Positions 478 to 40,960 of a stretch of DNA of 64,000 bases are shown here, piece after piece. The position numbers were made by a program, and so were the translations under genes. Below the pieces are notes generated by a model that was given only the letters and a program-made list of their open reading frames with translations, was not told where the DNA came from and made no database searches. This DNA comes from an uncultured Actinomycetota bacterium (lineage in GTDB: Bacteria; Actinomycetota; Actinomycetes; Streptosporangiales; Streptosporangiaceae), in the NCBI GenBank assembly GCA_963817625.1, contig CAWFPK010000020.1, forward strand, positions 40,185 through 104,184. The letters are read 5' to 3'. The number at the start of each line of letters is the position of its first letter. The first letter of the stretch is position 1.

Positions 478-550
478 TCTGCATCCGATCGACAAGGGCC
501 AGATCTGACCCTATCGCCCGGAGCGAGGTGGCCTGGGCTGGCCTAGCGCC

Positions 551-1330: not shown

Positions 1331-1340
1331 ATGCCGGACG

Positions 1341-3283: not shown

Positions 3284-3285
3284 CG

Positions 3286-4982: not shown

Positions 4983-5101
4983 GCACGCGAGTCTAGGGGC
5001 GAACTTGCATGCTCGGTGAAAATGCCCCTGCCTGGCGGAGTACTGTCTGTCAGCCCGGAATGATAATTTCGCTAAGGCTGCGGGCGCGCCGAGGAGCATC
5101 G

Positions 5102-6337
5102 ATGACACGGGTCTTGTGGGACGGGGATGGCACCGTGCGCCGCGCGCTCCGGTCGATCGTCGGCGACCCGAACCTCGGGGCGACGGCGCTGTCCGAGCCG
5201 CATCTGATGACCAACCTGCTCAAGGACCTGCTGCCAGATGAGCCCAGGGAGTCGGCAGTGCTGATCGCTGCCGCTCAGGTCGGCCTGCCTGATGTGCTGC
5301 AAGGTCACCTGGCTGAGGGCATGGACCTTGGCACCGCATCGAGGCTGACCGCCGGCTGGTTCGCCAAGCGGATGCCGTTTACCAAAGACGCATGCAGCTG
5401 GGTGGTCGGCGAGATCGCGATCGCGATCGGCGTGGACCCGACCGCGCTGGCCGACGTCACCATGCCAGACACGGTGCCGTACGTGGTGAGCTTCGACGAC
5501 GGCTACGAGATCGAAGAGGCCGGAGTCGTCATCGGCTGGGGCGACAACGACGAAGGCGAGACCGACATACCTACCGGGCTGGACAGCGTCATCGCCGTCG
5601 CGGCCGGCTGGTACCACAGCCTGGCCGTCACCGGCGATGGCAAGGTGGTGGCCTGGGGGAGCAGCGCCAGGGGCATGATCGACGTGCCAGCTGGCTTGTC
5701 CGGTGTCATCGCGGTCGCGGCCGGGCAGTACCACAGCCTGGCACTGACCGCCGCGGGAAACGTCGTGGCCTGGGGCGGCAACGGTTACGGACAGTGCGCC
5801 GTGCCGGTCGGCCTGGCCGGGGTGACCTCGATCGCGGCCGGCTCTGATCACAGCCTCGCGGTGTCGCAAGGCCGGGTGATCGCCTGGGGTGGCCACGGAA
5901 CTGGCCAGACCAACGTGCCCGACCTGCCCGTGGTGACGGCGGTCGCGGCGGGAGCCGGGCACAGCCTCGCGCTCACCGAGGACGGCACCGTGATCGGCTG
6001 GGGGCTCAATGACTTCGGCGAGATCTCCGTGCCGGCCGGGCTGGCCGGAGTGGTAGCGATCACCGCCGGAGTCAATCAGTCAGCGGCGGTCACCGGCGAT
6101 GGCAAGGTGGTCGCCTGGGGCCGCCAGGATTACGGCGTCACCGCCGTGCCGCCTGACCTCGCCGACGTTGTCGCCATCTCGGGCAACGGCACGCACTGCC
6201 TGGCGCTCACCAGCGACGGCCTAGTGCGGGGCTGGGGCAGCAATGACTGCGGCGAGGCTGACGTGCCCGCAGTGCTGTCCGGCGTCACCGCGATAGCGGC
6301 CGGCTACGGGCACAGCCTCGCGGTCATGCCGGACTAA
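5102..6337 (+). CDS. RCC1-repeat (beta-propeller) protein with unknown ~130-aa N-terminal domain
   Basis: ORF 5009..6337, ATG at 5102 (MTRVLWDG). It has seven tandem ~50-aa repeats of the form V(I/V)AWG.N..GQ..VP..L..V..IAAG..HSLA(L/V). Confidence 0.8.
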   Translation: MTRVLWDGDGTVRRALRSIVGDPNLGATALSEPHLMTNLLKDLLPDEPRESAVLIAAAQVGLPDVLQGHLAEGMDLGTASRLTAGWFAKRMPFTKDACSWVVGEIAIAIGVDPTALADVTMPDTVPYVVSFDDGYEIEEAGVVIGWGDNDEGETDIPTGLDSVIAVAAGWYHSLAVTGDGKVVAWGSSARGMIDVPAGLSGVIAVAAGQYHSLALTAAGNVVAWGGNGYGQCAVPVGLAGVTSIAAGSDHSLAVSQGRVIAWGGHGTGQTNVPDLPVVTAVAAGAGHSLALTEDGTVIGWGLNDFGEISVPAGLAGVVAITAGVNQSAAVTGDGKVVAWGRQDYGVTAVPPDLADVVAISGNGTHCLALTSDGLVRGWGSNDCGEADVPAVLSGVTAIAAGYGHSLAVMPD

Positions 6338-6345
6338 GAGCTCAG

Positions 6346-7800
6346 TTACCCGGCGACGAAATCGGCCAGCCGGGCGGACTGGTCCAGCCTGCTCGGCTCG
6401 TGCATGTACATCATGTGGCCGGACTCGTAATAGGCGAACTCGATGTTGCCAGTCAGCTCAGCCGGGATGGCCAAGTGCGCGAAGTCGGTCTGCGCCGCGA
6501 AGTACGGCGTTGCCGCGTCGTAGTAGCCGCAGGCCACGTGGATCCTCAGGTGCGGGTTGACCCGGATGGCCTCGGCCAGCTTGTCGAGCACGTACAGGTG
6601 CTTGGCCTCGAATTCCTTGTAGGACCAGGGGTGCACCCGATCGGTGAGCACCTCGTAGTTCAGGTCATTGGCGTAGCCAAGCTCGGCTCGTACGTAGTGG
6701 TTGAGCACGGCGGCGTAGGGCCCGACGATGGCGTCGATGGACGGGTCGGTGGTCCACCGCTCGCGGCCGTAGTTGCTGTCCCAGCCAAGGAACCGGCCGT
6801 CAATCCGGCCGACCGTACGGCGCCGGTCGCGCAGCAACTCGGTGAGGAACCTGATGTGCTCAGGGCGCAGGTCGATCCGGTCGACGTAATCCGCGCTCAG
6901 GCCGGTCAACTCGGCAACCTTCGCGATCGCCGCCGCCCGCTCGTCGGCGCTGGCCCTGGCACCGAGGCCAAGTACCCGCCGGTACTCGCCAGCCGCGAAG
7001 GCCTCAGCCTCGTCCAGGTGCTCGCGCAGCGGCCGGTCGCTGGTCTTGCCGTGGTAATGCGCGATCGCCGCATAAGTCGGCAGGTAGCTCACGAACGGCT
7101 CGTCGTTACCCGGCGTGAACATGATCGAGCCGCCGTCCAGGAAGGTGGAGAGCAGGATCAGCCCGTTGAGATACAGGCTGGCGCGCTCCTGCAGGTACCT
7201 GGCGAGGCCAGCGGCCCTGGTGGTGCCGTACGACTCACCGCAGAGGTACTTGGGTGACATCCACCGGTTGTGCCGGGTGGTCCACAGCCTGATCACCTCG
7301 CCAACCGACTCGATGTCAGCGCCGTAGCCATGGAAGTCCTTGGACTTCTCGCCTTTGACCGCGCGCGAGTAGCCGGTGGACACCGGGTCGATGAAGACCA
7401 GGTCGGAGTGCCTGAGCAGGGTCTGCTCGTTATCCGCGATGCCGTAGGGCGGCGGGAGCAGGTCGCCGGCGTCGCCCATCAGCACCCGGCGCGGGCCGAG
7501 CAGCCCGAGGTGCAGCCAGATGCTGGCCGAGCCAGGGCCGCCGTTGAATGCGAAGGTCACCGGCCTGCGACCGCGCTCCGTCTCGTCGACGTCAAGAACG
7601 TAGGAGACCATGAAAACCTCGGCCTTGGGCTCGGCCCCGTCGAACTTGTCGTCGGTGTGGCCCTCAGTCCTGAGCACGATCCGCCCGGCGGTGGCGGTGT
7701 ACTTCAGCTCAGTCCCGTCGACTGTGATCGAGTGCTCGGTAGTGACCAGGTCGTCGGCGGGCTCCGGCTTCTTGCTCTCCTGTGGCACCTCGTCCGGCAT
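6346..7800 (-). CDS. S10-family serine carboxypeptidase-like peptidase
   Basis: ORF 6346..7818, likely start MPDEVPQ (7800). Motifs FNGGPGSASIWLHLG and GESYGT (nucleophile Ser). Confidence 0.75.
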   Translation of the reverse strand: MPDEVPQESKKPEPADDLVTTEHSITVDGTELKYTATAGRIVLRTEGHTDDKFDGAEPKAEVFMVSYVLDVDETERGRRPVTFAFNGGPGSASIWLHLGLLGPRRVLMGDAGDLLPPPYGIADNEQTLLRHSDLVFIDPVSTGYSRAVKGEKSKDFHGYGADIESVGEVIRLWTTRHNRWMSPKYLCGESYGTTRAAGLARYLQERASLYLNGLILLSTFLDGGSIMFTPGNDEPFVSYLPTYAAIAHYHGKTSDRPLREHLDEAEAFAAGEYRRVLGLGARASADERAAAIAKVAELTGLSADYVDRIDLRPEHIRFLTELLRDRRRTVGRIDGRFLGWDSNYGRERWTTDPSIDAIVGPYAAVLNHYVRAELGYANDLNYEVLTDRVHPWSYKEFEAKHLYVLDKLAEAIRVNPHLRIHVACGYYDAATPYFAAQTDFAHLAIPAELTGNIEFAYYESGHMMYMHEPSRLDQSARLADFVAG

Positions 7801-7978
7801 TGTCGCTCCCAATAGCACAGCATCGTTGGCGTGGACTTCGCAGGATGCTAACGGGTGCGCCCACTGCGTTCGACACCGGAGTCCGGCAAGCTCAGCGAGC
7901 GAACCTGGGTCACGAACCTGGCGGTAGCTGCTTGATCGACGCGCCGACCTGGTCGGCCTAGCAGCCTGACCAGGCTAC

Positions 7979-8680
7979 TCAGGACCGCCGCTGCCCGGCT
8001 GCCTCGATCAGGGCGTGGAAGATGCTGTGCTCATCGCCAGCTTCAGGATGCCACTGCACGCCGATGGCCAAGGAAGCCTGGTCGAGTTCGAAAGCCTCGA
8101 TCAGCCCGTCTTCGGCCCAGGCGGTAGCGACCAGTCCGTCGGCTAGTCGGTCGACGCCCTGATGGTGATGCGTCGGGACGACGGCTGGCCCGGTGCCGAT
8201 GATGGCGGCGAGCCGGCTGGCCGGATCTACGCTGACCTTGTGCTCGCCCATAGCGCCCGGCACAGGGGAATGCCCGTCGTGGCCGACAACGTCGGGCAGG
8301 TGCTGTATCAACGTCCCGCCCAGCGCCACGTTGATGAGTTGCATGCCCCGGCAGATCCCGAGTACCGGGCGGCCGATGCTGAGGGCCGCGCGGAAGAGCG
8401 CGAACTCGGCTGCGTCCCGATCGGGCCGCATTACCACGGTCTGCGGATCAGGCGCGGCACCGTAGCGGTGCGGCTCGACGTCAGGGCCGCCGGAGATGAT
8501 CAACCCGTCGAGCGCGCTCACCACGTCATCGATGCCAGCCACCGGCGAGAGCAGCACCGGAACGCCGCCGGCCTCGGCGACCCGGTCCACGTAGTTCTGC
8601 GGCAGCAAGGTGGCCCGCTGATCCCAGACGCCCCAGCGGGCGACCTCGCTGTAAGCACTTATTCCGATGACTGGCCTCAT
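7979..8680 (-). CDS. class-I glutamine amidotransferase / peptidase C26 gamma-glutamyl hydrolase (PuuD-like)
   Basis: 233 aa. Catalytic Cys context GICRGMQLIN and C-terminal GVQWHPE motif. Confidence 0.8.
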   Translation of the reverse strand: MRPVIGISAYSEVARWGVWDQRATLLPQNYVDRVAEAGGVPVLLSPVAGIDDVVSALDGLIISGGPDVEPHRYGAAPDPQTVVMRPDRDAAEFALFRAALSIGRPVLGICRGMQLINVALGGTLIQHLPDVVGHDGHSPVPGAMGEHKVSVDPASRLAAIIGTGPAVVPTHHHQGVDRLADGLVATAWAEDGLIEAFELDQASLAIGVQWHPEAGDEHSIFHALIEAAGQRRS

Positions 8681-9441
8681 AGCGGCGTCACGTAAGCTCC
8701 GGCGATGCCGCCGTCCACCAGGAACTGCGACGCTGTGATAAAGGACGAGTCGTCACTAGCCAAGAAGGCCACCGCAGCCGCGATCTCATCCGGCTGCGCG
8801 AACCGGCCCATCGGCACGTGCACGAGCCTGCGCGCTGCCCGCTCAGGATCTTTGGCGAACAGCTCACGCAGCAGTGGCGTGTCGACCGGGCCTGGGCAGA
8901 GCGCGTTGATCCTGATGCCCTCGCGGGCGAACTGCACCCCAAGTTCGCGGCTCATCGCCAGCACACCGCCCTTGGAGGCGGTGTAGGAGATTTGCGAGGT
9001 CGCAGCGCCGAGCACGGCAACGAACGAGGCCGTATTGATGATCGAGCCCTTACCCGCCTGCCGCATATGCGGGATGACGTACTTGCAGCACAAGTAGACC
9101 GAGGTCAGGTTCACTTCCTGGACGTGGCGCCAGGCGTCGATGCCGGTGGTCAGGATGGAGTCGTCCTCAGGCGGCGAGATCCCCGCGTTGTTGAACGCGA
9201 TGTCGATCCGTCCGTACTCCGCCGCGACGCCATCGAATAGCTGCCGCACCTCGGTCTCGCTGGCGACGTCGGCCCGGACGAACCTGCCACCGACCTGCGC
9301 CGCCGCGGCCGCGCCGGCTTGCTCGTCGATGTCGACGGCGACGATCGTGGCCCCTTCGGCGGCCATCCGCTTCGCACTGGCCAGCCCGATCCCGCTGCCC
9401 GCGCCGGTCACGACAGCGACTCGGTCCTGCAAGCGCTGCAT
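8677..9441 (-). CDS. short-chain dehydrogenase/reductase
   Basis: TGAGSGIG cofactor motif and YTASKGG (YxxxK). 4-nt overlap with the downstream gene. Confidence 0.85.
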   Translation of the reverse strand: MQRLQDRVAVVTGAGSGIGLASAKRMAAEGATIVAVDIDEQAGAAAAAQVGGRFVRADVASETEVRQLFDGVAAEYGRIDIAFNNAGISPPEDDSILTTGIDAWRHVQEVNLTSVYLCCKYVIPHMRQAGKGSIINTASFVAVLGAATSQISYTASKGGVLAMSRELGVQFAREGIRINALCPGPVDTPLLRELFAKDPERAARRLVHVPMGRFAQPDEIAAAVAFLASDDSSFITASQFLVDGGIAGAYVTPL

Positions 9442-9448
9442 GTTGCTC

Positions 9449-10810
9449 CTAATCGGTTGAGATGAACACGTTCTTGGTCTCGGTGAACGCCTCGAGTGCG
9501 TCGGGCCCGAGCTCCCGGCCGAGCCCTGACTGCTTGAACCCGCCGAACGGCGTCCAGTACCGCACCGAGCTGTGCGAATTCACCGAGAGGTTGCCGGCCT
9601 CGATCGCCCGCGCTACCCGGATTGCCCGGCCCACGTCGCGGGTCCAGATCGAGCCTGACAGCCCGTAGGGGGTGTCGTTGGCGATCTCGATCGCCTGCGC
9701 CTCGTCGTCAAAGGGCGTGACCGTGACCACCGGCCCGAAGACCTCCTCAGTGTAGGCAGGCGCATCGAATCCGATCGGCGCCAGCACGGTCGGCGGATAC
9801 CACCATCCTGGGCGCTGCGGCGCGTTGCCACGGAATGCCACTGGCGCGCCTTCAGGCACATAAGCAGCAACGTGGTCGCGGTGGCTGGCCGAGATCAACG
9901 GCCCCATCTCGGTGTCAGTTGATGCCGGGTCCCCGACCTTGACGCCTTTGACGGCCGGCTCAAGCAACTCCATGAATCGCTCGAACGCGCTCGCTTGCAC
10001 GAGAATGCGCGACCGAGCGCAGCAATCCTGCCCGGCGTTGTCGAAGACCGCGTAAGGCGCGGTTGCCGCTGCCTTCGCCAGGTCGGAGTCAGCGAACACC
10101 ACGTTGGCGCTCTTGCCACCGAGTTCTAGCGTGAGGCGCTTGATCTGCCTGGCGCAGCCCGTCATGATCTGCTGGCCGACCTCGGTCGAGCCGGTGAACA
10201 CGATCTTGCGCACCGCCGGGTGATCCACCAGTCGTTGGCCGACTACCGACCCCTTACCGGGCAGCACCTGGAACACGCCGTCAGGCAGTCCGGCCGCCAG
10301 CGCCAGCTCGCTGACCCTGATCGCGGTCAGCGGAGTCAGCTCGGCGGGCTTGGCGATCACGGCATTTCCGGCCGCCAGTGCCGGGGCGAGCCCCCAGGAC
10401 AGGATCGGCATCGGGAAATTCCATGGCACGATCAGCCCGACCACGCCGAGCGGCTCGGCGAAGGTGACATCGAGGCCGCCTGCGACCGGGATCTGCTTGC
10501 CGATCAGTCGCTCCGGCGCGGCTGAGTAGTACTGGATGACATCCCTGAGCTGGCCGGCCTCCCAGCGGGCGGCGCCGATGGGGTGGCCGGAGTTCGCTAC
10601 CTCAAGCTGAGCCAGCTCCTCGGCATGGGCGTCGACCTCGGCGGCGAAGCTGCGCAGCAGCTTCGCCCGGTCGCCGGGCGAGACCGCGCGCCAGGTTCGC
10701 TGCGCCACTTCGGCGCGGGCGATTGCGGCGTCTGTCTCCTGCGCTGACGTGCCAGGAACGGTCGTGACGACCTGTTCGGTGGCAGGGTTGAGCACGGTGA
10801 AGCTCGACAT
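9449..10810 (-). CDS. NAD(P)-dependent aldehyde dehydrogenase
   Basis: 453 aa. ELGGKSA and catalytic Cys region NAGQDCCA, FTGST(E)VG motif. Confidence 0.9.
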   Translation of the reverse strand: MSSFTVLNPATEQVVTTVPGTSAQETDAAIARAEVAQRTWRAVSPGDRAKLLRSFAAEVDAHAEELAQLEVANSGHPIGAARWEAGQLRDVIQYYSAAPERLIGKQIPVAGGLDVTFAEPLGVVGLIVPWNFPMPILSWGLAPALAAGNAVIAKPAELTPLTAIRVSELALAAGLPDGVFQVLPGKGSVVGQRLVDHPAVRKIVFTGSTEVGQQIMTGCARQIKRLTLELGGKSANVVFADSDLAKAAATAPYAVFDNAGQDCCARSRILVQASAFERFMELLEPAVKGVKVGDPASTDTEMGPLISASHRDHVAAYVPEGAPVAFRGNAPQRPGWWYPPTVLAPIGFDAPAYTEEVFGPVVTVTPFDDEAQAIEIANDTPYGLSGSIWTRDVGRAIRVARAIEAGNLSVNSHSSVRYWTPFGGFKQSGLGRELGPDALEAFTETKNVFISTD

Positions 10811-28273: not shown

Positions 28274-29030
28274 GATCCGTGACCTGCACGTGCCGTGTCG
28301 TCCGGGCCGACGGTGAGCAGCCAGGAGATCCTGCGCGGCGTTAACCTGACGGTGGCGTCCGGGCGAGACGCACGCGATCATGGGTCCGAACGGCTCGGGC
28401 AAGTCGACTCTGGCGTACTCCATTGCCGGGCACCCTAAGTACCAGGTCACCAGTGGCAGCGTCACGCTTGACGGAGAAGACGTACTGGCGATGAGCGTCG
28501 ACGCGCGGGCCAGGGCTGGCCTGTTCCTGGCCATGCAGTACCCGGTCGAGGTGCCGGGCGTGACCGTGTCGAACTTCCTGCGCACGGCAGTGACCGCGGT
28601 ACGCGGCGAGGCGCCGAAGCTGCGGGAGTTCGTCAAGGAGCTGCAATGGCGCGATGAAGGCCTGTCCATCGACCCGGCGTTCGCCCAGCGCAACCTCAAC
28701 GAAGGCTTCTCCGGCGGCGAGAAGAAGCGGCACGAGATCCTGCAGCTCGAGCTGCTCAAGCCGAAGATCGCGATCCTGGACGAGACCGACTCGGGTCTCG
28801 ACATCGACGCGCTCAAGGTCGTGTCCGAGGGCATCAACGAGTACCGCGAGAACTCGGATCACGGGGTGCTGCTGATCACCCACTACACCCGGATCCTGCG
28901 CTACGTCCGGCCAGACTTCGTGCACGTCTTCGTCGGCGGCAGGATCGTGGAGGAAGGCGGACCTGAACTGGCTGACGAGCTCGAGGCGAACGGCTACGAG
29001 CGCTTCTTGAACGCTGGGGCGGTCGCATGA
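28260..29030 (+). pseudogene. sufC: Fe-S cluster assembly ATPase SufC, three +1 insertions in the first 105 nt
   Basis: MSTLEIRDLHV (frame 0), VVRADGEQ (+1), QEILRGVNLTVASG (+2), ETHAIMGPNGSGKST... The inserted C residues are at about 28293, 28321 and 28364. The rest (ORF 28380..29030) is intact. Confidence 0.85.
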
Positions 29031-30283
29031 CCTTCGACGTCGCCAGGATCCGCAAGGACTTTCCGATCCTGGATCGGACCGTCCGCGATGGACGGCCGCT
29101 CGTCTATCTGGATAGCGCCAATACCTCGCAGAAGCCGCGCCAGGTGATCGACGCCGATCAGCGACTTCTACGAGCGGCATAACGCCAACATCCACCGGGC
29201 CACGCACGAGCTCGGCGAGGAGGCGACGCAGGCCTACGAAGGCGCCAGGATCAAAGCGGCGCGTTTTCATCGGCACGCCCGACGAGACCGAGGTGGTCTT
29301 CACCAAGAACGTCTCCGAGGCGATCAACCTGGTCGCCTACTCGCTCGGGAATGCGCGGACGGGACAACTCGTGATCAGCCCGGGCGACGAGATCGTCATC
29401 ACCGAGATGGAGCACCACTCCAACATCGTGCCCTGGCAGCTGCTCTGCGAGCGGACCGGCGCCACGCTGCGCTGGTTCAGCGTGACACCGAGACGGCCGG
29501 CTCGACCTTGATCAGGCCGCTGACCTGATCAACGAGCGAACCAAGCTCGTCGCGGTGGCGCATCAGTCGAACGTGCTCGGCACGATCAACCCGGTGCGGC
29601 GAGATCGCCGCGCTGGCGCACGCGGTCGGCGCGCTGGTGCTGGTCGACGCCGCGCAGTCGGTACCGCACGGGCTGGTCGACGTCAGCGCGCTTGATGCCG
29701 ACTTCGTCGGCATTCACCGGTCACAAGATGTGCGGCCCGACCGGCATCGGCGTGCTGTGGGCGCGGCGCGAACTGCTCGATGAGATGCCGCCGTTCCTCG
29801 GCGGCGGCGAGATGATCGAGTCCGTGTGGATGGACCGGTCCACCTATGCTGCGCCACCGCACAAGTTCGAGGCCGGCACCATGCCGATCGCCGAGGCCGT
29901 CGGGCTAGGTGCGGCCATCGACTACCTGAGCGAGCTGGACATGCCCGCCGTTCGTGCGCACGAGCATGAGCTGCTCAGCCAGGCGCTGCAGCGGACTAGG
30001 CGAGATTGCCGGGCTGCGAATACTAGGGCCGACTGAACCGGTGGACCGGGGCGGCGCGATTTCCTTCACCGTCGAGGATGTGCATCCGCACGACCTCAGT
30101 CAGGTGCTTGACGATCGCGGCGTCGCGGTACGGGCTGGGCACCATTGCGCCTGGCCGCTGCACCGTGCGCTCGGGGTGCAGGCCTCCACCCGGGCGAGCT
30201 TCTATCTGTACAACACCTCTGAGGAAGTGCAAGCGCTGGTCGATGGCATCAGAGCGGCGCAGAAGTTCTTCGGAGTGGCATAG
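29027..30283 (+). pseudogene. sufS: cysteine desulfurase SufS, about 7 frame breaks
   Basis: [16 protein letters not shown]... Breaks lie near 29156, 29265, 29494, 29598, 29710 and 29993, all read as +1. Conserved blocks include [22 protein letters not shown] and RAGHHCA. Confidence 0.85.
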
Positions 30284-30354
30284 ATCTTGATGTTTGAGAC
30301 ACAACGGCGCACCGAGGACGGAACACCCCGCTATGCCGTGATGTTGGAGGCGGA

Positions 30355-30822
30355 GTGATGCAACTCGAGTCGATGTACCAGGAGATCATCCTGGATCACT
30401 ACCGTCACCCGCACCACAGGGGCCTGCGGGAGCCGTTCGACGCCCAGGTACATCACGTCAATCCGACCTGCGGTGACGAGATCACGCTGCGGGTCACGTT
30501 GAAGGACGCGGGTGGCGAGCCAGCGGTGGCCGACGTGTCGTACGACGCGCTCGGCTGCTCGATCAGCCAGGCCAGCGCTTCGGTGCTGACCGACCTGGTG
30601 ATTGGCAAGCCAGTCAGCGAGGCGATGGATATCAGTGCCGCCTTCGTCGAGCTGATGCATAACCGCGATGCCGAACCGGACGATGAGGTGCTTGGCGACG
30701 CCGTGGTCTTTGCTGGCGTCGCCAAGTACCCAGCGCGGGTCAAGTGCGCGTTGCTTGGCTGGATGGCGTGGAAAGATGCCACTGCACGCGCGCTTGGCGA
30801 GCTGGATGGGGAGCAGAAATGA
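30355..30822 (+). CDS. sufU: SufU/IscU-like Fe-S scaffold / sulfur acceptor
   Basis: 155 aa, intact. NPTCGDE, GCSIS and KYPARVKCA Cys ligand motifs. Confidence 0.9.
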   Translation: MMQLESMYQEIILDHYRHPHHRGLREPFDAQVHHVNPTCGDEITLRVTLKDAGGEPAVADVSYDALGCSISQASASVLTDLVIGKPVSEAMDISAAFVELMHNRDAEPDDEVLGDAVVFAGVAKYPARVKCALLGWMAWKDATARALGELDGEQK

Positions 30823-31199
30823 CGCAAGCCAACTCAGAAACTGAGTTCGACGCCGACGTAGAGCCGGAGTCCAACTTGAATCCGCAGAGCACCCCGGAGA
30901 TCGATGACCTTCTTGAGGCGTTGCGTGACGTGGTGGACCCTGAGCTTGGCGTGAACGTGGTCGACCTCGGCTTGGTCTATGGCGTCAGCCTGGATGCCGA
31001 GCGGGTCGCCACCGTGGACATGACCCTGACTAGCGCTGCCTGCCCGCTCACCGACGTGATCGAGGATCAGGCTCAGGCTGCGCTGGAGGGCCTGGTGAGC
31101 GGCTTTCGGATCAACTGGGTTTGGCTGCCGCCGTGGGGCCCGGAGAAGATCACCGAAGATGGCCGCGAGCAGTTGCGCGCACTCGGCTTCAACGTCTGA
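30819..31199 (+). CDS. DUF59/SufT-like metal-sulfur cluster assembly factor
   Basis: ORF 30744..31199, ATG at 30819 with an ATGA overlap to sufU. VVDPELGVNVVDLGLVY...TLTSAACPL. Confidence 0.85.
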   Translation: MTQANSETEFDADVEPESNLNPQSTPEIDDLLEALRDVVDPELGVNVVDLGLVYGVSLDAERVATVDMTLTSAACPLTDVIEDQAQAALEGLVSGFRINWVWLPPWGPEKITEDGREQLRALGFNV

Positions 31200-31208
31200 G
31201 CACTGGTC

Positions 31209-31868
31209 ATGACCCCTGGCCCGGCCCGCAGGCTCGAAGTCGCGCCGGGTCGGTTTCCGGGCTGGATCGAGTCGTTCGGCGAGCGGCACGGGTCGGTAAC
31301 GGTAGCGAGCGATGCTGAGGCGGCGACCTTTTCCTCGGCCGACGGTGCCGTTGCCCGCTGCCTAGTCCCGTTTCCGCCGCTGGCCGAGGTTCGCGATCCT
31401 GACGCCGCCAGCCTCGCGAAACTGATAGCCGAGCACGCCTGCGCCGACCGCGTCGTCGGCGTTTTCCTGGTGCGGCTTGGCGGCTACGCCGCCGGAGTGT
31501 TCACCGGCACCGGTCCGATACTGGTCGCCTCGAAGGTCGGCAGCAGGCTCGTGCACGGGCGCAGTGCGGCCGGCGGCCAGTCCCAGCAGCGATTCGCCCG
31601 GCGCCGCGAAAATCAGGCCCGTCAGGCACTGGGTGCTGCTGCCGATACCGCGGCGGCCGTCTTTGGCCCTTATCAACTTGATGCGCTGGTGCTCGGCGGC
31701 GACCGCCGGGCGTTCACCATGATCAGGAACGATGCCCGGCTCGCGGCCTACTTCACGGTCGCGGTCGATGCGTTCTTGACCGTGCCCGATCCCCGGTTGG
31801 CCGTGCTCAAAGAAGCACCTAAGCTCTTCCGGTCCATCAAGATCACCTTGTCCGAGCCAGCCAAGTAA
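31209..31868 (+). CDS. acVLRF1-family (Vms1/eRF1-like) peptidyl-tRNA hydrolase
   Basis: 219 aa. GGQ-type loop SAAGGQSQQRFARRREN within an eRF1-like core. The family assignment is from memory of actinobacterial VLRF1 proteins. Confidence 0.65.
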   Translation: MTPGPARRLEVAPGRFPGWIESFGERHGSVTVASDAEAATFSSADGAVARCLVPFPPLAEVRDPDAASLAKLIAEHACADRVVGVFLVRLGGYAAGVFTGTGPILVASKVGSRLVHGRSAAGGQSQQRFARRRENQARQALGAAADTAAAVFGPYQLDALVLGGDRRAFTMIRNDARLAAYFTVAVDAFLTVPDPRLAVLKEAPKLFRSIKITLSEPAK

Positions 31869-32062
31869 CTCGCCGACGGGTGGTCGAACAGTAGGGGGTC
31901 CGCCTTAGTTGAAAAGTGGTCTGATATCAGATTGATGCGCATTTGAAAGTGACGAATGGCAGCAGTCAAGCGCACCGTTGCGGTCGAAACAACGCTGGCG
32001 TACAGTGCCACTGACGCCAGGATAGATAAACTAACGACAATTCGGCCAGTTAGGCACGTTGA

Positions 32063-32983
32063 ATGCGTTATGTCTACCTCGATCACACAACTGAACCTCT
32101 CGATGTCCTGGGCAAGCTTCATGGTCGTCTCATCAATGACCGTTCACAATTGCAAGTATCAGGGTTGCTTCTGCACACCTGCCATCGCGTCGAGTGGTGC
32201 TCGGCCGCAGGCGGCGCCCCTCCGGTACCTGAACTTGCCTCGGGCACAGAAACATTAGGCGCACGGCGAGCGCTTAGTCGTCTCAGCAAGATCGCGGCCG
32301 GAGTGATGTCCATCATCGTCGGCGACAGACTCGTCTTCAACCAGGTGCTCGAAGCGGGATCTCAGCTTGATAGCACCTCCGCGGAATACGTCCTTCTCCA
32401 CCGCGCTCTGGGAATCGCCCGCCAGGCCCGGCAGCGGTTCGGCCTAGAGCCGGTAATTGACTACGGCGACATGCCAAGGACGCTGAGGTCTATCGACTCA
32501 CATCAGGGTCGTGCGCCAGTCGCGCGCCTCGTGGTGGTCGGCGGCGGCATGCTGGCACAAGCCATTGCGCTAAGATCTGGCCCCGCTTATGGCAACGTCG
32601 TTTTGGTGACAAGAAATACCTCGCGCCTGCACAAGACATTGCACTCCAGTATGGACGCCAGCGTGCGTGCTAAAGTCGTGAGCCCAGCCGCGGCAATGGC
32701 AGAAGCCGCTCGCGAGCCGTTTGATCTTGCGCTCACTTCTACCAGCACCAACCGTACCTACCTACGCTACATAGACACGTTGACGGCTCATCCCAACCTC
32801 GGCCGAGCGCTCGACTACCGAGCCACGCCGGCACTGCCCCGCGCTACCCACAAATATGGGCACATCTCCGACGCGGACATCCTGCGGCAGGTAATCGAGG
32901 CCAACCGCGTCGTAGCGGATCGCGCACGAGAAGCAAGCGGCTGGATCGACCGCGTGACTGATGAGGTGGAGGATGTGTCGTGA
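32063..32983 (+). CDS. glutamyl-tRNA reductase (HemA)-like oxidoreductase lacking the C-terminal dimerisation domain
   Basis: 306 aa. It aligns by eye to E. coli HemA block by block: [12 protein letters not shown] ~ [23 protein letters not shown] ~ VVLSTCNRTELY (nucleophile Cys); [24 protein letters not shown] ~ [31 protein letters not shown] ~ [19 protein letters not shown] ~ [19 protein letters not shown] ~ ISSTASPLP. Confidence 0.7.
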   Translation: [306 protein letters not shown]

Positions 32984-33780
32984 CCGGCGGCATCGATCGC
33001 CCGCGGCGAATATCCTCTCCGACTGGAGATCTTGCGGCCGAGGCGGCGCGTTGTGCCCAGGTCATATTTGGCAACGAACTGCTTGCCGCGTTCGTAGGCG
33101 GCTCTCGCGCGGTCGGCCGTCAACGTAATGACAGCGATATAGACGCATTCGTCTTGATCGAACGTGGCGATCGCGACAAGGAAACTCAATACGCCGTAGC
33201 GCTCAAGACGCTGCACGAAGCTAACGGTCTGATGTTTGACCACTATGGCGAGATATTTGATCGCGCGACGCTTGAGTCGCTACTGAGTTTCACCGAACTG
33301 GTCGACCAGACGGTACCCTGGATGAGAAGCGAGGCACCTTGTTATCGAGGTAACTGCCTTCTTTCGATCTATCGAAAGGGCAGGGTCGTTCTTGAGTTTC
33401 TTGCGGCCCCGAAGATCGAGGTGCTCGATCCGCATGGAGCGCTCTCCAGACTCGAATACCGAGCTCAGCGTCATTTGGCTGGACACCCAACTGACCTGCC
33501 GTCACCGTCCGCCATAGTGAATCTCGACCACGACACAAAGCAGCGCCTGCTACGGGACCTGTGGAGACCAGGCAAGAGCAATTCGGATGGGCTAGACACG
33601 CCAATCGGAGTAGGTCTACGACGTTGGTTTGGTAGTGAGCTAACTCAGCGCCGCCAATACGTCTCCCTTGACCAGCTGCCCGATGTCGGACCCGGTACCG
33701 CACTTGATTGCCCGCTGTCACGAGAATCAACACCGCAACAAGTCGCGTACTACGCGCAATGCCTAGCGTGGCCTACCTAA
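32980..33780 (+). CDS. Pol-beta-superfamily nucleotidyltransferase domain protein
   Basis: 266 aa. GTGA start/stop overlap with the upstream gene. NTase signature GGSRAVGRQRNDSDIDAFV (GS-x10-DxD). The ~180-aa C-terminal region is unassigned. Confidence 0.65.
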   Translation: MTGGIDRPRRISSPTGDLAAEAARCAQVIFGNELLAAFVGGSRAVGRQRNDSDIDAFVLIERGDRDKETQYAVALKTLHEANGLMFDHYGEIFDRATLESLLSFTELVDQTVPWMRSEAPCYRGNCLLSIYRKGRVVLEFLAAPKIEVLDPHGALSRLEYRAQRHLAGHPTDLPSPSAIVNLDHDTKQRLLRDLWRPGKSNSDGLDTPIGVGLRRWFGSELTQRRQYVSLDQLPDVGPGTALDCPLSRESTPQQVAYYAQCLAWPT

Positions 33781-33826
33781 TGAGCGAGAGTAAGCCAGTA
33801 ATATTAGTCGAGGAATCGAGGTAGCC

Positions 33827-34930
33827 GTGGTCCCGCAGACAATCAACTGGTCCCACTTCCAGGAACTTTCCCTGTCGGCCAGACGGGATGCGCTTACTAA
33901 GGGATATGACTCGCCTGACACCTCACGCGCCGTCACGGAGATCATATCTAAAGCCGCAGGCGGTCACCTGTCAAATACTACTCCCTTGCGCGACCTCCAG
34001 CGGGTGCTCGATCAACTCCGTGCGCTGCCGCCGGGTATAGAACGGGTTTGCGGCATGAACGCGTTCGTACGGACGTTGGGCCGTCCGGAGAACCTAGCGT
34101 CGCTGTTGGATGTGCTCCGATCCTCTCTCAACAAAGACGACGAATTCGAAGCTACATTGTCGGAAAGATCGCGCCGCGGCCGGATGCATTGTATTTACGG
34201 CTGGGCCGGGCAGAGCTTGATGCTGGCATCTCATCCCGATCCGACGATTGGAACTGAGACTCCGGCTCAAGACATGACTTTCATCGGATATCCGCCGGCC
34301 GAGTGGGATATGAGTATTCATATCTGGCAGCCAAACCCCGGAGCGATCGGCTTCGCTTCTACCAAGCGGGTCGAACCTTCCGTGATCGTTGAGCCGCCGC
34401 ACTCGCATCCGTTCTCCTTCGTGTCCTACGTAGCGAAAGGACAAATGCATCAATCTATCTACGCCACAGCGGCGGCGCATCAGGACGACAGTTATGCGAA
34501 CGGCAGTCGATACTCGGGAGTTATCCTGCAGGAAGTCGATGGCGTATGGCCACCACATGAGGACTACACTCCCAAACGACTGCGCACCGTTGAAGATCGG
34601 ATCCAACTATGCGAGGGAGACAGCTACTTCCTGCCGTCGAACGCGATCCATGACGTGGAGATCGATCGGCAATCGGCCGCCGATAAACCCACTATCACGC
34701 TCTTTCTGTGTGCCGAGGCAACGGTCAAGCCGAAAGCATACCTAGCACCAGAGATGGCCGATTTCCATCGATTGAATCCCGACCTAAAAGAGGTCGCGGT
34801 CGCGTTGTCGCCGTCGCAGTGGGACGAGAAGCTCCGACTCGTCGCGAGTTATCTGCGGGGCGAGGCCGCTAGCCTCCGGCTAGCTGACGTGGTGCGCTGC
34901 AATAGCACCTACGGCTTCATGCACGTGTGA
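33827..34930 (+). CDS. cupin-like protein of unknown function
   Basis: 367 aa, GTG start. C-terminal half has cupin-type motifs EPPHSHPFSFVSY and GDSYFLPSNAIHDVE. The N-terminal ~170 aa has no recognisable motif. Confidence 0.5.
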   Translation: MVPQTINWSHFQELSLSARRDALTKGYDSPDTSRAVTEIISKAAGGHLSNTTPLRDLQRVLDQLRALPPGIERVCGMNAFVRTLGRPENLASLLDVLRSSLNKDDEFEATLSERSRRGRMHCIYGWAGQSLMLASHPDPTIGTETPAQDMTFIGYPPAEWDMSIHIWQPNPGAIGFASTKRVEPSVIVEPPHSHPFSFVSYVAKGQMHQSIYATAAAHQDDSYANGSRYSGVILQEVDGVWPPHEDYTPKRLRTVEDRIQLCEGDSYFLPSNAIHDVEIDRQSAADKPTITLFLCAEATVKPKAYLAPEMADFHRLNPDLKEVAVALSPSQWDEKLRLVASYLRGEAASLRLADVVRCNSTYGFMHV

Positions 34931-34966
34931 CAGCGAAGCCCGACCTGGCGTGGTACCGCTTACGCC

Positions 34967-35752
34967 ATGAACAATAGGTGGATCGAGCTTGAGGGCGCTG
35001 CCAATGTCCGTGACCTGGGCGGACTTGCGACGGTCGATGGCCGCCAGACGTTGCCGAGACGTCTGCTGCGATCAGACAACCTGCAAGACCTCACTCCACC
35101 CGACATTCGGACGCTGGTCGTTGACATCGGCCTGACGACGATCATCGATCTTCGCAGTACCGGCGAACTGGCGTCCGAGGGGCCGGCGCCGCTCGACCAG
35201 GTACGGTCGGTGCGCCACCTCCATCGCTCCATCCAGGCAGAGCCGGGAATGTCCGCTGACGGTGCCGTCGAGGTAACGCTGGTGAGCCAGGTCGATCAGA
35301 CGTCGAACAATACTGCGCCGATCGGTGCCCACTACCTCGGGTATCTGCGGCAAAGGCGGGCTCAAGTTGTCGCTGCGCTGCGCGATATCGCGGCAGCTCC
35401 TGGCGCGGCGATCGTGCATTGCGCCGCCGGGACGGATCGGACTGGCGTGGTTGTCGCGCTGGCGCTTCGCGCCGTCGGCGTCGGCACGGATGCGGTGGCG
35501 GCTGACTACGCGGCCAGCGGAGAACGCCTCGCCGCAGTATTCGATCGGCTGCGGCTGTCATCGACGTACTCGGCCAGCAGCCCGGCGAGGTCCGCCGACT
35601 CGCAACGGCCCCAGCCTGAGACGATGGCGAGGTTTCTCGGAGAACTCGACTCACGATACGGCGGCGTGGTCAAGTGGCTCGCGGCCCATGGCTTCGGTGC
35701 CGAAGACGTGCACAGGCTCCGCGTCAAGCTGCTGGGCTCCGGGTCGCCGTGA
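34967..35752 (+). CDS. protein-tyrosine-phosphatase-like (Y_phosphatase3-type, CX5R) phosphatase
   Basis: 261 aa. N-terminal NVRDLGG and active-site loop HCAAGTDRTG. Confidence 0.7.
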   Translation: MNNRWIELEGAANVRDLGGLATVDGRQTLPRRLLRSDNLQDLTPPDIRTLVVDIGLTTIIDLRSTGELASEGPAPLDQVRSVRHLHRSIQAEPGMSADGAVEVTLVSQVDQTSNNTAPIGAHYLGYLRQRRAQVVAALRDIAAAPGAAIVHCAAGTDRTGVVVALALRAVGVGTDAVAADYAASGERLAAVFDRLRLSSTYSASSPARSADSQRPQPETMARFLGELDSRYGGVVKWLAAHGFGAEDVHRLRVKLLGSGSP

Positions 35753-35826
35753 GGCCGCCAGCGCCTGGGCTCGCTGCGCGGCCGTAGCGGGCTCAGGGTG
35801 ACAGAACGTTGCGGTATATTGGCTCG

Positions 35827-37464
35827 ATGTTGACAGTCGAAACACGTGATCGACTTGTGCCCTTTACCGGCCTAACTCCTGAGTCCTTGGAGCAGCGCTA
35901 TCCACCGCGATCACTGCGCGCTGGTGCTGAGGTCACTCGGTTCGCACCCAGCCCGACCGGTTATGTGCACGTCGGCGGCATCCTGGTAGCACTAATTGCC
36001 CAGTCTATGGCGGCTTCCACTGGTGGTGTCTTCATTCTGAGAATAGAGGACACCGACCAGAGCCGCTATGTTGACGATGCCGTGCCGCAACTGTTTCGCG
36101 CCCTTGAATACTTCAGGCTGCTTCCCGACGAGAGCATCAAGGCCGGCGACTATGGGCCTTACCAGCAGAGCGCTCGTCACGAAATCTACGACACCTATAT
36201 TAGATCACTCCTAGAGAAGGATCGTGCCTATCCTTGCTTTTGCTCCGCAGCTGACCTGAAGCTCATGACTGAGCGCCAGCAGGCGGCGGGAGTCCCAGCC
36301 GGGTACTGGGGAGAGTGGGCCAAGTGCCGTACCTTGAGCGAGGCGGCGGTTGTCGAACAGTTGGATAGCGGAGCAGCCCACGTTATTCGTTTCCGCGCAC
36401 CTGAGTTCACGGGCAAGAGGATTCACTATGTCGACCGTGTGCGCGGTCAGATGGAAATTGACGACAACCGAAACGATGTCGTCATCCGCAAGACTGTTGG
36501 CCTGCCAACCTATCATCTTGCGCACCCAATCGACGATCACCTCATGCGAGTAACCACCGTCGTGCGAGCGGACGAGTGGTTGTCTTCGGTCCCACTGCAC
36601 CTCCAGCTATTCGCAGCGCTCGACTTTGAGCCGTTGCCCTATGGGCACATCGCCCCAATTCTCATGATGGATGGGCGAAGCCGGCGGAAGCTTAGTAAGC
36701 GAAAAGACCCGCAGGCGAATGTAGATTTCTATTTGACCTCGGGATTCCCGGTGGAGGGCGTGCTCTGTTATCTGCGCGGCTTGGCCAATAGTCGATTGCA
36801 GGACATGCCGTGGCGTGAGGTACTGGCGGCGGAGATCATTCTTAGCGAATGCTCTTCCAGTGGACAGTTGCTTGACCTCGACAAACTAGCCTACATATGC
36901 CGCGAGGTGATCGCGGACCTGACCATCCCGGAGATCGCGGAACGCCTTGGGGAGTGGGCCAGGGCCAATGATGAGCGGATAGCTAAGGTACTGGCCGAGA
37001 ATCCGGATTCAGTACTAAAAGCTCTCACTATTGAGGAATTCGCGCCAGGCCACGCGCGTAAGGATCTCGCCAAGTGGTCCGAATTCGATGAAAAGTACGG
37101 GTTTTTGCTGCCAGAGCTCTTCCAGGTAGTCCACGATCCAGCTGACGCAAGGTTCGCGTCGCTCGCGCCAGATCTGGTCCTTAAAATGGCTGCTACCGTC
37201 GCTGAGAAATATCAACATGCTGGCGACGCGGCGACCTGGTTTGATCAGATACGAAGGGCGGCCGCAGATCTGGGATTTGCCGCCACCGCCGGCGAGTATC
37301 GTAGCAATCCGGAGAAATTCCACGGCGCGCTAAAAGACGCTGCCAACGTGATCCGAGTTTTGCTGACTGGGCGTACCCGAAGTCCGGATCTCTATCAGGT
37401 CTCGCGGGTTCTGGGCGGAGAAGAAGTCCTTCGAAGGTTGACCTCTCTGCCCGATCTAGCCTGA
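35827..37464 (+). CDS. glutamate--tRNA ligase paralogue (full length)
   Basis: ORF 35809..37464 (TTG), ATG at 35827. Class-I motifs FAPSPTGYVHVGG (HIGH-type), LRIEDTDQSRY and KLSKRK (KMSKS-type). A ~200-aa C-terminal helical domain is present. Confidence 0.8.
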   Translation: MLTVETRDRLVPFTGLTPESLEQRYPPRSLRAGAEVTRFAPSPTGYVHVGGILVALIAQSMAASTGGVFILRIEDTDQSRYVDDAVPQLFRALEYFRLLPDESIKAGDYGPYQQSARHEIYDTYIRSLLEKDRAYPCFCSAADLKLMTERQQAAGVPAGYWGEWAKCRTLSEAAVVEQLDSGAAHVIRFRAPEFTGKRIHYVDRVRGQMEIDDNRNDVVIRKTVGLPTYHLAHPIDDHLMRVTTVVRADEWLSSVPLHLQLFAALDFEPLPYGHIAPILMMDGRSRRKLSKRKDPQANVDFYLTSGFPVEGVLCYLRGLANSRLQDMPWREVLAAEIILSECSSSGQLLDLDKLAYICREVIADLTIPEIAERLGEWARANDERIAKVLAENPDSVLKALTIEEFAPGHARKDLAKWSEFDEKYGFLLPELFQVVHDPADARFASLAPDLVLKMAATVAEKYQHAGDAATWFDQIRRAAADLGFAATAGEYRSNPEKFHGALKDAANVIRVLLTGRTRSPDLYQVSRVLGGEEVLRRLTSLPDLA

Positions 37465-37576
37465 TCCGGCCGGCCCAGGCGGCATCGACCGGGCAGCTCG
37501 CCCATCTGGCCCTATGCCCGGTTTAGGTGATTAGCCCGGGCAGTGGCGGGTCAGGTCAGGCGTGCGCCGAACCCTT

Positions 37577-40599: not shown

Positions 40600-40750
40600 C
40601 ACGACGGGTGGGGAGTGCGTCGCGACGATCGTGGGTAACCGGGCTCGCCGACCTCGATGGGCCGTTTTACCGTTGCGGGTCAGCGCCGGGATCTCACCGG
40701 ACTTCCCCCACCAAGTCGCCTGTTGAGTTGTACTTGCTCATGCCAGACGT
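40600..40750 (-). promoter_or_regulatory. cobalamin riboswitch (minus strand)
   Basis: The reverse complement reads GGTGGGGGAAGTCCGGTGAGATCCCGGCGCTGACCCGCAACGGTAAAACGG...GGCGAGCCCGGTTACCC, which gives the conserved core (GGGAAg.CCGGTGaGAtCCGG.GC.GaCCCGCaAC.GT) plus a B12-box-like element. A TTGACA-N17-GACAGT promoter-like pair lies at 40780-40752, and an RBS-sequestering hairpin precedes ATG 40528. Confidence 0.75.
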
Positions 40751-40796
40751 TACTGTCTCCCACCGTCGCGGCGCTGTCAACACCTGCGTTGACCCT

Positions 40797-40960
40797 GCCA
40801 GTGCCGGTGTGATCAGATGGGGCGTCAATGTAGTCAGGGGAAGCCGGTCAGATTCCGGCACTGGCCCGCAGCCGTGGGTCCGCACGTCGTGCGGGCGAGT
40901 CGGAGCACCTGGCGTGACAGCAATAGTCGTCTTAGCGTCGTCGCGGACCACGGCGCGGAA
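40797..40960 (+). promoter_or_regulatory. cobalamin riboswitch (plus strand)
   Basis: GCCAG...AGGGGAAGCCGGTCAGATTCCGGCACTGGCCCGCAGCCGTGGG...GAGTCGGAGCACCTGGC. The conserved core and B12 box are present, and P1 can close as GCCAG (40797)/CTGGC (40909). It lies 70-230 nt upstream of ATG 41031. Confidence 0.75.

Follow-up and report, generated by a model that had tools for sequence, protein, structure and literature searches.

What does a glutamyl-tRNA synthetase (GluRS) paralog do beside a truncated relative of glutamyl-tRNA reductase (GluTR)? The question is raised by five genes in a stretch of 64,000 nucleotides (nt) from an uncultured actinobacterium of the Streptosporangiaceae (GenBank contig CAWFPK010000020.1, positions 40,185 to 104,184), hereafter called the window. 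To our knowledge, GluTR is a textbook single-purpose enzyme: it takes the first committed step of the C5 tetrapyrrole route, and no other role is known for it. An original prediction, made from the letters of the DNA, had described five same-strand genes for a GluTR-like enzyme, a nucleotidyltransferase (NTase), a cupin-like protein, a CX5R phosphatase and a GluRS. We found these five + strand open reading frames (ORFs) where it had placed them, between an acVLRF1 gene and a DinB-like gene, with all of the quoted motifs, a GTGA overlap that couples the GluTR-like and NTase genes, and intergenic gaps of 36–75 nt. From profile, structure-model and neighborhood comparisons we lean, if only just, towards reading the locus as a small gene cassette that moves horizontally and serves to make a specialized metabolite by a tRNA-dependent route.

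The GluTR-like protein

The first gene (32063..32983, + strand) encodes a protein of 306 aa. Its score for the Pfam family GlutR_N (24.4 bits) was just under the cut-off of 27, and it failed the curated threshold of NCBIfam NF000744 (24 bits versus an equivalog cut-off of 429). A profile of 13 relatives matched two GluTR structures, with E=4e-13 for the Methanopyrus kandleri enzyme (1gpj) and E=2.5e-8 for that of Arabidopsis. The AlphaFold2 (AF2) model (pLDDT 88.7) contains an NADPH-binding Rossmann domain, and its six best Foldseek matches were all GluTRs (E 1.6e-10 to 1.1e-7), with an identity to true GluTR of 15–18% in the Foldseek alignments.

The alignments placed the family on the active site of GluTR. 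T39-C40-H41-R42-V43-E44 aligned with T47-C48-N49-R50-V51-E52 of GluTR, so that C40 falls on Cys48 (Ser in the crystallized 1gpj chain), and TCHR was invariant in 13 of 13 sequences. S83, Q94 and V95 aligned with the GLES...QV motif of GluTR; in the Rossmann domain, the invariant G160-G161-G162-M-L-A and T183-R184 aligned with GAGEMG and NRT. Taken over the family, invariant positions matched GluTR T47, C48, R50, E52, S94, Q105, GxGxxA and the Arg of the NRT motif. Profile, AF2 and Foldseek results agree with the original prediction that the 306-aa protein lacks the dimerization domain, and they indicate that it is a true GluTR homolog with a predicted catalytic N-domain and NADPH domain.

The family is small, with 14 clusters among 5.8 billion proteins. 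A more distant member (30% identity, TCQRIE motif) was found in a JGI metagenome (L024, 3131-5765), where its neighbors, encoded on the opposite strand, are an RNase T-like exonuclease and a LigT-like (2H) phosphoesterase; this contig ends before any downstream partners. A Limnocylindrales locus (L017) gave a weak match (28% identity, E=3e-4).

Distribution and two types of cassette

Related loci came from 185,579 scanned species genomes, from metagenomes, from a plasmid collection and from look-ups of individual contigs. An NTase gene accompanied the GluTR-like gene in 18 of the 19 informative loci, and a GluRS gene lay within 7 kb in 16 of them, across at least five actinomycete genera and several metagenomes. 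The exceptions were a lone GluTR-like gene (L013), a locus where the place of the GluRS is taken by an exporter-like membrane protein together with a TetR regulator (L001), and a contig that ends before the GluRS (L009); the NTase was present in every cassette. The co-occurrence expected by the original prediction therefore held for the GluTR-like, NTase and GluRS genes, which recurred in about 16–18 of the 19 loci, but not for the five genes as a unit.

Two types of cassette were distinguished. In type A, the order is GluTR-like, NTase, cupin and GluRS, and the first two genes usually overlap. This type comprises the window and six metagenomic loci (L007, L009 [partial], L018/L023, L020, L021, L022); its cassettes have atypical GC content, and the cupin gene was found in all of them. 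The phosphatase gene was found in two of the seven, namely the window and L018/L023 (66% identical, same position), and was absent from L007, L020, L021 and L022. A conserved five-gene unit that includes the phosphatase was ruled out on this ground, and the phosphatase is an accessory member. In type B, the GluTR-like gene is followed by genes for an FAD-dependent oxidoreductase, the NTase and two paralogous radical-SAM/SPASM enzymes, and then by a GluRS gene on the opposite strand. The cupin of the originally predicted five-family set is thus replaced in this type by the FAD and radical-SAM enzymes. Across type B loci the conserved block consists of exactly these six genes, bounded by the GluTR-like gene on one side and the GluRS gene on the other.

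Type B cassettes were found in Streptomyces, Kitasatospora, Saccharopolyspora and Nocardia (hosts include Streptomyces sp. NBC_01591, CP109327; Kitasatospora griseola, CP173360; and Nocardia sp. NBC_01388), with three copies on plasmids of 61, 214 and 329 kb, which argues that these are not housekeeping genes. We conclude that the cassette is rare and horizontally mobile. In the PGAP annotation the GluTR-like gene is a 'hypothetical protein', and the labels of the remaining core genes are no more than generic ('nucleotidyltransferase domain-containing protein', 'FAD-dependent monooxygenase', 'radical SAM protein'). With a pI of 9.35 the GluTR-like protein of the window is basic, as is a type B homolog (9.24), and the NTase is acidic.

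Accessory gene content varied between loci, as it does in biosynthetic clusters. Amidase-signature enzymes are encoded beside the GluRS in a type A locus (L007, 5085-6575) and in a type B locus (L032, 12210-13733), and these two are 66% identical. Since the core genes of the two types share 30–43%, this accessory gene appears to have been shared or exchanged between them. Further accessory genes across the loci encode a HAD phosphatase, methyltransferases, GNAT and NUDIX proteins, and nonribosomal peptide synthetase (NRPS) fragments lie nearby. A ribosomally synthesized peptide pathway, with a precursor for the SPASM enzymes, was considered and rejected, as no conserved small ORF was found across the type B loci.

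Two of the exceptional loci deserve description. The lone GluTR-like gene of Kitasatospora sp. NPDC053057 (L013, 9692-10879) is 79% identical to that of K. griseola and is probably a cassette remnant. In Streptomyces sp. NBC_01591 (L001), directly upstream of a type B cassette without the GluRS, the region 19-9733 has genes for a modular polyketide synthase, a 775-aa LanB/PEARL-like (Lant_dehydr_N) protein and a DUF455 protein. The family of this LanB-like protein includes Glu-tRNA-dependent dehydratases, so a second enzyme of this kind may share the neighborhood.

Two lineages of GluRS

The GluRS-family gene of the window (35809..37464, + strand) encodes 551 aa; an alternative start at 35827 gives 545 aa, matching the product called in a public assembly. 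The protein scored 206 bits for tRNA-synt_1c, its HIGH (HVGG) and KMSKS (KLSKR) motifs are intact, and its N-terminus is extended by about 40 aa. The best matches in the PDB were 9ymm (195 bits) and 1j09 (189 bits), and M. tuberculosis GluRS reached only 133 bits, placing the protein nearer to the Thermus-type GluRS than to that of M. tuberculosis. This distance from actinobacterial GluRS and the plasmid-borne cassettes lend indirect support to the original prediction that the window GluRS would be a second copy in its genome. The positions aligned with R5, Y187, R205 and W209 of Thermus thermophilus GluRS are kept; together with N191, we take these to be glutamate-pocket residues.

Many proteins of ~546 aa, annotated 'glutamate--tRNA ligase family proteins' and sharing a PTYH[L/F]AH motif, form the large clade in which the type A GluRS falls, and many matches at about 50% identity came from soil metagenome-assembled genomes. 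Lone genes of this clade were also seen on plasmids of Streptomyces sp. NBC_00704 (L035, 8980-10647) and S. viridifaciens (pKVP1; L036, 8950-10593). One such lone-clade region carries genes for an MFS transporter, LuxR regulators, an acyl carrier protein, an adenylate-forming enzyme, a pyridoxal phosphate enzyme and hemB; in the other, the GluRS-family gene follows VioD, NRPS, short-chain dehydrogenase/reductase (SDR) and AsnB-like genes.

The type B GluRS is a different protein. It passed TIGR00464 at 372 bits, its anticodon-binding domain is complete (105 bits), and it aligned over its full length with M. tuberculosis GluRS as the nearest match (300 bits); its identity to the type A GluRS is 30%. 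These different lineages indicate that a GluRS was recruited twice to the GluTR-like/NTase pair. Two independent acquisitions are the strongest argument for Glu-tRNA as the substrate shared by both types.

The NTase, the cupin protein and the phosphatase

The second gene (32980..33780, + strand) encodes a Pol-beta-superfamily NTase-like protein of 266 aa. It scored just under the cut-offs of both Polbeta (24.1 versus 26.9 bits) and NTP_transf_2 (20.6 versus 21), and the type B ortholog passed NTP_transf_2. The hG[GS]x9-13DxD catalytic motif is present (GGSRAVGRQRNDSDID), and G40, G41, S42, D53 and D55 of the pattern G40-G41-S42 ... S52-D53-x-D55 were invariant in 16 of 16 sequences. Four cysteines (C121, C126, C244, C261) are likewise invariant, and the C-terminal ~180 aa have no recognizable fold. 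Profile matches in the PDB were at E=0.07 or weaker and covered ~45 residues, the minimal NTase motif only, and no known NTase subfamily (MNT, ANT, CCA-adding, CD-NTase) could be assigned from this search. The NTase family comprises 13 clusters.

The third gene (33827..34930, + strand) encodes a 367-aa protein with a weak match to Cupin_2 (18 bits). In its AF2 model (pLDDT 89.3), an N-terminal helical domain (~1-125) precedes a C-terminal cupin barrel. The best Foldseek matches of the barrel were thiol dioxygenases (8vni, cysteine dioxygenase [CDO], 3-mercaptopropionate dioxygenase) at E ~1e-5. Against CDO, MDO and mercaptosuccinate dioxygenase, the probability was 1.00, the TM score on the target 0.4–0.56 and the identity 10–13%; the barrel is most like those of 3-His thiol dioxygenases. 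H192, H194, H244 and H275 are invariant, which suggests a His-only metal site. There was no sequence-level match in the PDB, and with the extra 125-residue helical domain the protein was not assigned to a specific group of thiol dioxygenases. A search of 1.8 billion proteins gave 49 representatives of this family. From its modeled fold, we regard the cupin protein as a putative core oxidative enzyme of type A cassettes.

Relatives of the cupin protein were found in other settings. On an ENA metagenome scaffold (L026, 1-13832), a 47%-identical helical plus cupin homolog is encoded in an operon of overlapping genes, in the order LeuRS, two unknown proteins (149 aa and 398 aa), methyltransferase, Amidohydro_2, S66 peptidase, PhyH dioxygenase, APH kinase, cupin, 1271-aa TPR protein and EEP nuclease/phosphatase. 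This operon is a second link of the cupin family to an aminoacyl-tRNA synthetase (aaRS). At L028 (540-5731), a homolog is flanked on one side by a GT28-like glycosyltransferase and on the other by a pair of LOG/SLOG proteins, an NTP pyrophosphatase of the Ham1 type and a GT2; the protein P0018 (704 aa) is a fusion of a GT28-like glycosyltransferase to the cupin. Some members of the family have ankyrin or EF-hand N-termini and look eukaryotic. The two operons, with LeuRS, S66 and APH in one and LOG, Ham1 and glycosyltransferase in the other, point to aminoacyl or nucleotide substrates.

The fourth gene (34967..35752, + strand) encodes a 261-aa CX5R phosphatase that matched Y_phosphatase3 at 182 bits (cut-off 22) and has the loop HCAAGTDRTG.

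A proposed pathway

We propose the following sequence of reactions. Judging from homology, the GluRS-family enzyme of the cassette would load glutamate onto tRNA-Glu. Cys40 of the GluTR-like protein would then attack the ester of Glu-tRNA to give a glutamyl-thioester, and reduction with NADPH would yield glutamate-1-semialdehyde or a further reduced form, as the conserved catalytic, substrate-binding and cofactor residues suggest. Thioester formation followed by hydride transfer is the chemistry expected of the C5 route (PMC7242693). The translationally coupled NTase may capture the reactive amino-aldehyde or amino-alcohol, most plausibly as a nucleotide conjugate or by activation. The His-site cupin would oxidize or rearrange the product, a task that in type B may fall to the FAD enzyme and the two radical-SAM/SPASM enzymes. 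Lineage-specific tailoring or self-protection may be the task of the phosphatase in the window and, at other loci, of the amidase, HAD phosphatase, methyltransferases, GNAT and NUDIX proteins. In this scheme the cassette GluRS would supply the substrate and may also be an immune copy. The original prediction had proposed, as one possibility, release of glutamate-1-semialdehyde and its processing by the neighboring enzymes, and we infer the same general course.

Several observations weigh against this pathway. The chain of the GluTR-like protein ends at residue 306 after a single helix (282-301), and the dimerization domain is absent, whereas GluTR chains have 399–472 aa; according to the M. 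kandleri structure paper, this domain is said to help tRNA binding. Where M. kandleri GluTR has His84, the GluTR-like family has an invariant Arg (R73), and where it has Asn49, the family has the invariant His41, so that catalysis may differ from that of GluTR. The window GluRS scored below the cut-off of TIGR00464 (268.4 versus 289.95 bits), its anticodon-binding region is divergent, with Pfam Anticodon_2 covering the last 38 residues only, and it has PTYHLAH in place of the PTYHLAN of T. thermophilus. This change of N191 to His is common to the whole clade, and the Asn presumably contacts the substrate. Together, the low score, the divergent anticodon region and the Asn-to-His change suggest that the window GluRS may not make standard Glu-tRNA-Glu. 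Moreover, its clade also occurs alone, in cluster-like regions of Streptomyces plasmids that have no GluTR-like gene. No transporter or regulator was conserved with the cassette across the related loci. The role given to the NTase is a guess, as only ~45 residues of this protein match known NTases.

If the proposal is true, charged tRNA-Glu is diverted into a small-molecule product by a conserved, mobile, plasmid-borne offshoot of GluTR that has neither the dimerization domain nor HemL and has acquired a GluRS twice. A reductive mechanism would then join the aminoacyl-tRNA-dependent classes of the cyclodipeptide synthases (CDPS), LanB/PEARL, Fem/GNAT-type and L/F-type transferases. The motifs TCHRVEW and GGGMLA beside a four-Cys NTase offer a handle for genome mining, and the type B cassettes of culturable Streptomyces, Kitasatospora, Nocardia and Saccharopolyspora make the proposal directly testable. 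The results may also illuminate the ~546-aa GluRS-family clade in cluster-like regions of actinomycetes and the competitiveness gene nfe2 of Sinorhizobium meliloti, described below.

Alternative explanations

The alternative that survives best is a refinement compatible with the proposed pathway: the product would be a GluRS inhibitor, a glutamyl-adenylate mimic such as a glutamol-AMP-like compound that the NTase would make by adenylylating the reduced glutamate, and the cassette GluRS would be the insensitive copy of the target, in place of a substrate supplier or in addition to that role. We consider this unlikely, though worth keeping in view. Producers of antibiotics that target an aaRS (mupirocin, indolmycin and agrocin 84, for example) usually owe their immunity to an additional copy of the enzyme, and synthetic glutamol-AMP is reportedly a GluRS inhibitor that was co-crystallized with T. 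thermophilus GluRS. The one universal partner of the GluTR-like enzyme is the NTase. The type B GluRS is transcribed separately from the opposite strand, and one locus has the exporter-like protein and TetR instead; the solitary type A-clade genes on Streptomyces plasmids look like duplicated-target resistance genes. Genes for nucleotide handling (NUDIX, Ham1, LOG, APH, phosphatases, and an S66 [MccF-family] peptidase) lie near the cassette or near the cupin homologs. However, this reasoning is indirect throughout, and GluTR chemistry ends at the aldehyde. Resistance-type substitutions were not recognizable in the cassette GluRS, the literature search found no natural GluRS-targeting antibiotic with a resistant GluRS, and a supply role has equal precedent in VlmL of the valanimycin pathway. 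A bolder combination, to which we give slightly less credence, would make the GluTR-like enzyme the founding member of a fifth aminoacyl-tRNA-dependent class, with reductive off-loading into secondary metabolism, and would have the four-Cys NTase lead to a glutamyl-adenylate mimic that inhibits GluRS; with the cassette GluRS immune, this would be the first natural GluRS-directed antibiotic system.

A pathway that uses no tRNA at all seems less probable again. Here the GluRS-family protein would adenylate glutamate or transfer it to a non-tRNA acceptor, in the manner of MshC, GluQRS or the MetRS-like hydrazine synthetases, and the GluTR-like protein would reduce or transfer that ester or thioester. 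The features of the type A GluRS set out above (a TIGR00464 score under the cut-off, an anticodon match confined to the last 38 residues, and the clade-wide Asn-to-His change) are what this explanation would predict, as is a GluTR-like protein without the domain thought to help hold tRNA, and aaRS paralogs that work without tRNA have been reviewed (PMC2922099). The type B GluRS speaks against it, since that protein passes the curated model, has a complete anticodon domain and aligns over its full length with M. tuberculosis GluRS. Glu-tRNA is, moreover, the common denominator of two independently recruited GluRS lineages, and the GluTR-like protein is strongly basic.

We rate as more improbable still a conflict or defense module that acts on tRNA or nucleotides, by depletion or modification of Glu-tRNA or through an antiviral nucleotide; the NTase and phosphatase would then act at the ends of RNA. 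In favor are the mobility, compactness and sporadic distribution of the cassette, and the copies on plasmids. Barnase and barstar genes adjoin one type A locus, the distant GluTR-like gene of L024 adjoins the RNase T-like exonuclease and 2H phosphoesterase, the radical-SAM proteins of the cassettes share their core with prokaryotic viperins, and LOG/SLOG and Ham1 genes lie beside cupin homologs. Yet no sensor or effector (nuclease, TIR, pore-former) is present and the neighborhoods are not defense islands, whereas the oxidative tailoring enzymes, amidase, methyltransferases, GNAT, NRPS fragments and exporter/TetR look biosynthetic. A known defense system was rejected for both types, as PADLOC 2.0 gave weak generic matches only (18–25 bits for the NTase and 60–69 bits for the radical-SAM core).

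Ordinary or back-up housekeeping copies of gltX and hemA for the synthesis of 5-aminolevulinate are extremely improbable. Together, GluRS and GluTR do correspond exactly to the first half of the C5 route (PMC7242693), but hemL and other tetrapyrrole genes are absent nearby, the family is rare, truncated and far under the equivalog score, cassettes occur on plasmids and those of type A have atypical GC, and a wide distance separates the type A GluRS from the housekeeping GluRS of actinobacteria.

Comparison with known systems

One precedent for a tRNA-dependent pathway is valanimycin, in which a pathway-dedicated SerRS, VlmL, feeds the aminoacyl-tRNA-dependent enzyme VlmA. Likewise, the cassette has an aaRS gene beside the presumed consumer of its aminoacyl-tRNA in a compact, non-housekeeping set. 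The difference is that its consumer is a reductase-type GluTR homolog and not a Fem/GNAT-like transferase, CDPS or LanB/PEARL enzyme. A 2026 review of aminoacyl-tRNA-dependent enzymes mentions no reductase and cites Glu-tRNA only for CDPS and LanB (PMC12945691). A full-text literature search and curated families likewise gave no description of the cassette, in line with the original prediction, whose author was aware of no characterized system with this gene set. On balance, and going by homology and gene neighborhoods, it seems somewhat probable that this is a tRNA-dependent specialized-metabolite cassette with a new class of tRNA-consuming enzyme.

Clusters with a resistant aaRS (mupirocin, indolmycin, agrocin 84, SB-203208, altemicidin) also have a divergent aaRS in, or divergently transcribed from, a biosynthetic cassette; altemicidin is reviewed in PMC13518217. 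The recurrence of the same GluRS clade in other cluster-like regions is a further likeness. Unlike in those clusters, the aaRS product of the cassette is also the presumed pathway substrate, and neither a GluRS-targeting natural product nor a resistant GluRS came up in the literature search.

The cassette also resembles the C5 entry (GluRS to HemA/GtrR to HemL), in that a GluRS accompanies a GluTR-fold enzyme that retains the nucleophilic Cys with its neighboring Arg, and an NADPH-binding Rossmann domain. It differs in having no dimerization domain, HemL partner or tetrapyrrole genes, in the Arg at His84 and His at Asn49, and in failing the curated thresholds; the partners of the GluTR-like enzyme are an NTase and oxidative enzymes, and the set is rare, mobile and sometimes plasmid-borne.

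The systems that pair a MetRS-like protein with a cupin were later shown to be hydrazine synthetases. They too have a class I aaRS paralog strictly linked to a His-site cupin (Aravind et al. 2010, PMC2922099), and the type B flavin monooxygenase adds to the likeness. The cassette has a GluRS and not a MetRS, a different cupin family with a helical domain, and no lysine N6-monooxygenase, and the MetRS-like systems themselves are without GluTR-like and NTase genes (PMC2922099).

A distant member of the truncated GluTR-like family is nfe2 of S. meliloti GR4 (plasmid pRmeGR4b, NC_019847.2 149759-150694; L033). Its score with the family profile was 115 bits, and both the Cys motif (ATCARLEFY) and the Rossmann motif (IIGAGMLGQ) are retained. 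In the nodule formation efficiency locus, it sits between nfe1 and an ornithine cyclodeaminase-family gene, without an NTase, cupin or GluRS.

Composition and flanks of the locus

The original prediction had described a low-GC island. The dip is real, but the hand-counted contrast of 52–57% against ~72% was overstated: in sliding windows, the GC content of the cassette was 0.56–0.62 versus 0.63–0.70 in the flanks, with a mean of 0.666 for the window. GC at third codon positions (GC3) gave a clearer split, 0.58–0.66 in four cassette genes versus 0.76–0.87 in the flanks. The phosphatase gene is not low in GC (GC 0.664, GC3 0.748), and its composition is host-like.

Searches of the window found no HemL, other tetrapyrrole gene or LanB/PEARL-type enzyme nearby, as the original prediction had claimed. 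No hemL or tetrapyrrole gene was present within ~10 kb of the cassette or conserved in the related loci, and no LanB-like, further GluRS or further GluTR-like sequence was found elsewhere in the window. A dedicated cassette tRNA was rejected, as tRNA genes were found neither in the window nor in 15 related loci.

The upstream intergenic region (31869..32062, + strand), a presumed promoter and leader, has the lowest GC of the locus. It held no sigma-70 consensus match, promoter and terminator scans were not above shuffled expectation, no T-box, riboswitch or other Rfam element was found upstream of the cassette at E<=1, and no leader or 5' region was conserved among the type A loci; any promoter within 31869..32062 is putative. 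At the edges of the cassette there was no tRNA gene, Rfam element or integrase/mobility gene, and flanking repeats were short chance matches.

On the left, the acVLRF1 gene ends at 31868 (NCBIfam, 238 bits). It closes a block (28380-31868) that consists of a Suf Fe-S cluster assembly operon (SufC-like ATPase, cysteine desulfurase fragments, SufU-like protein and one further small ORF) and this acVLRF1 peptidyl-tRNA hydrolase gene. The block at the left edge suggests that the cassette was inserted directly after a conserved housekeeping block. On the right is a weakly matching DinB/mycothiol-transferase-like gene on the opposite strand. About 3 kb downstream of the cassette, two divergent cobalamin riboswitches (40633-40708 on the − strand and 40793-40930 on the + strand) precede genes for prenyltransferase-like alpha-alpha toroid proteins and for a CbiQ/ABC ATPase/ECF S-component transporter. 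These riboswitch-controlled genes presumably serve B12 uptake and are unrelated to the cassette.

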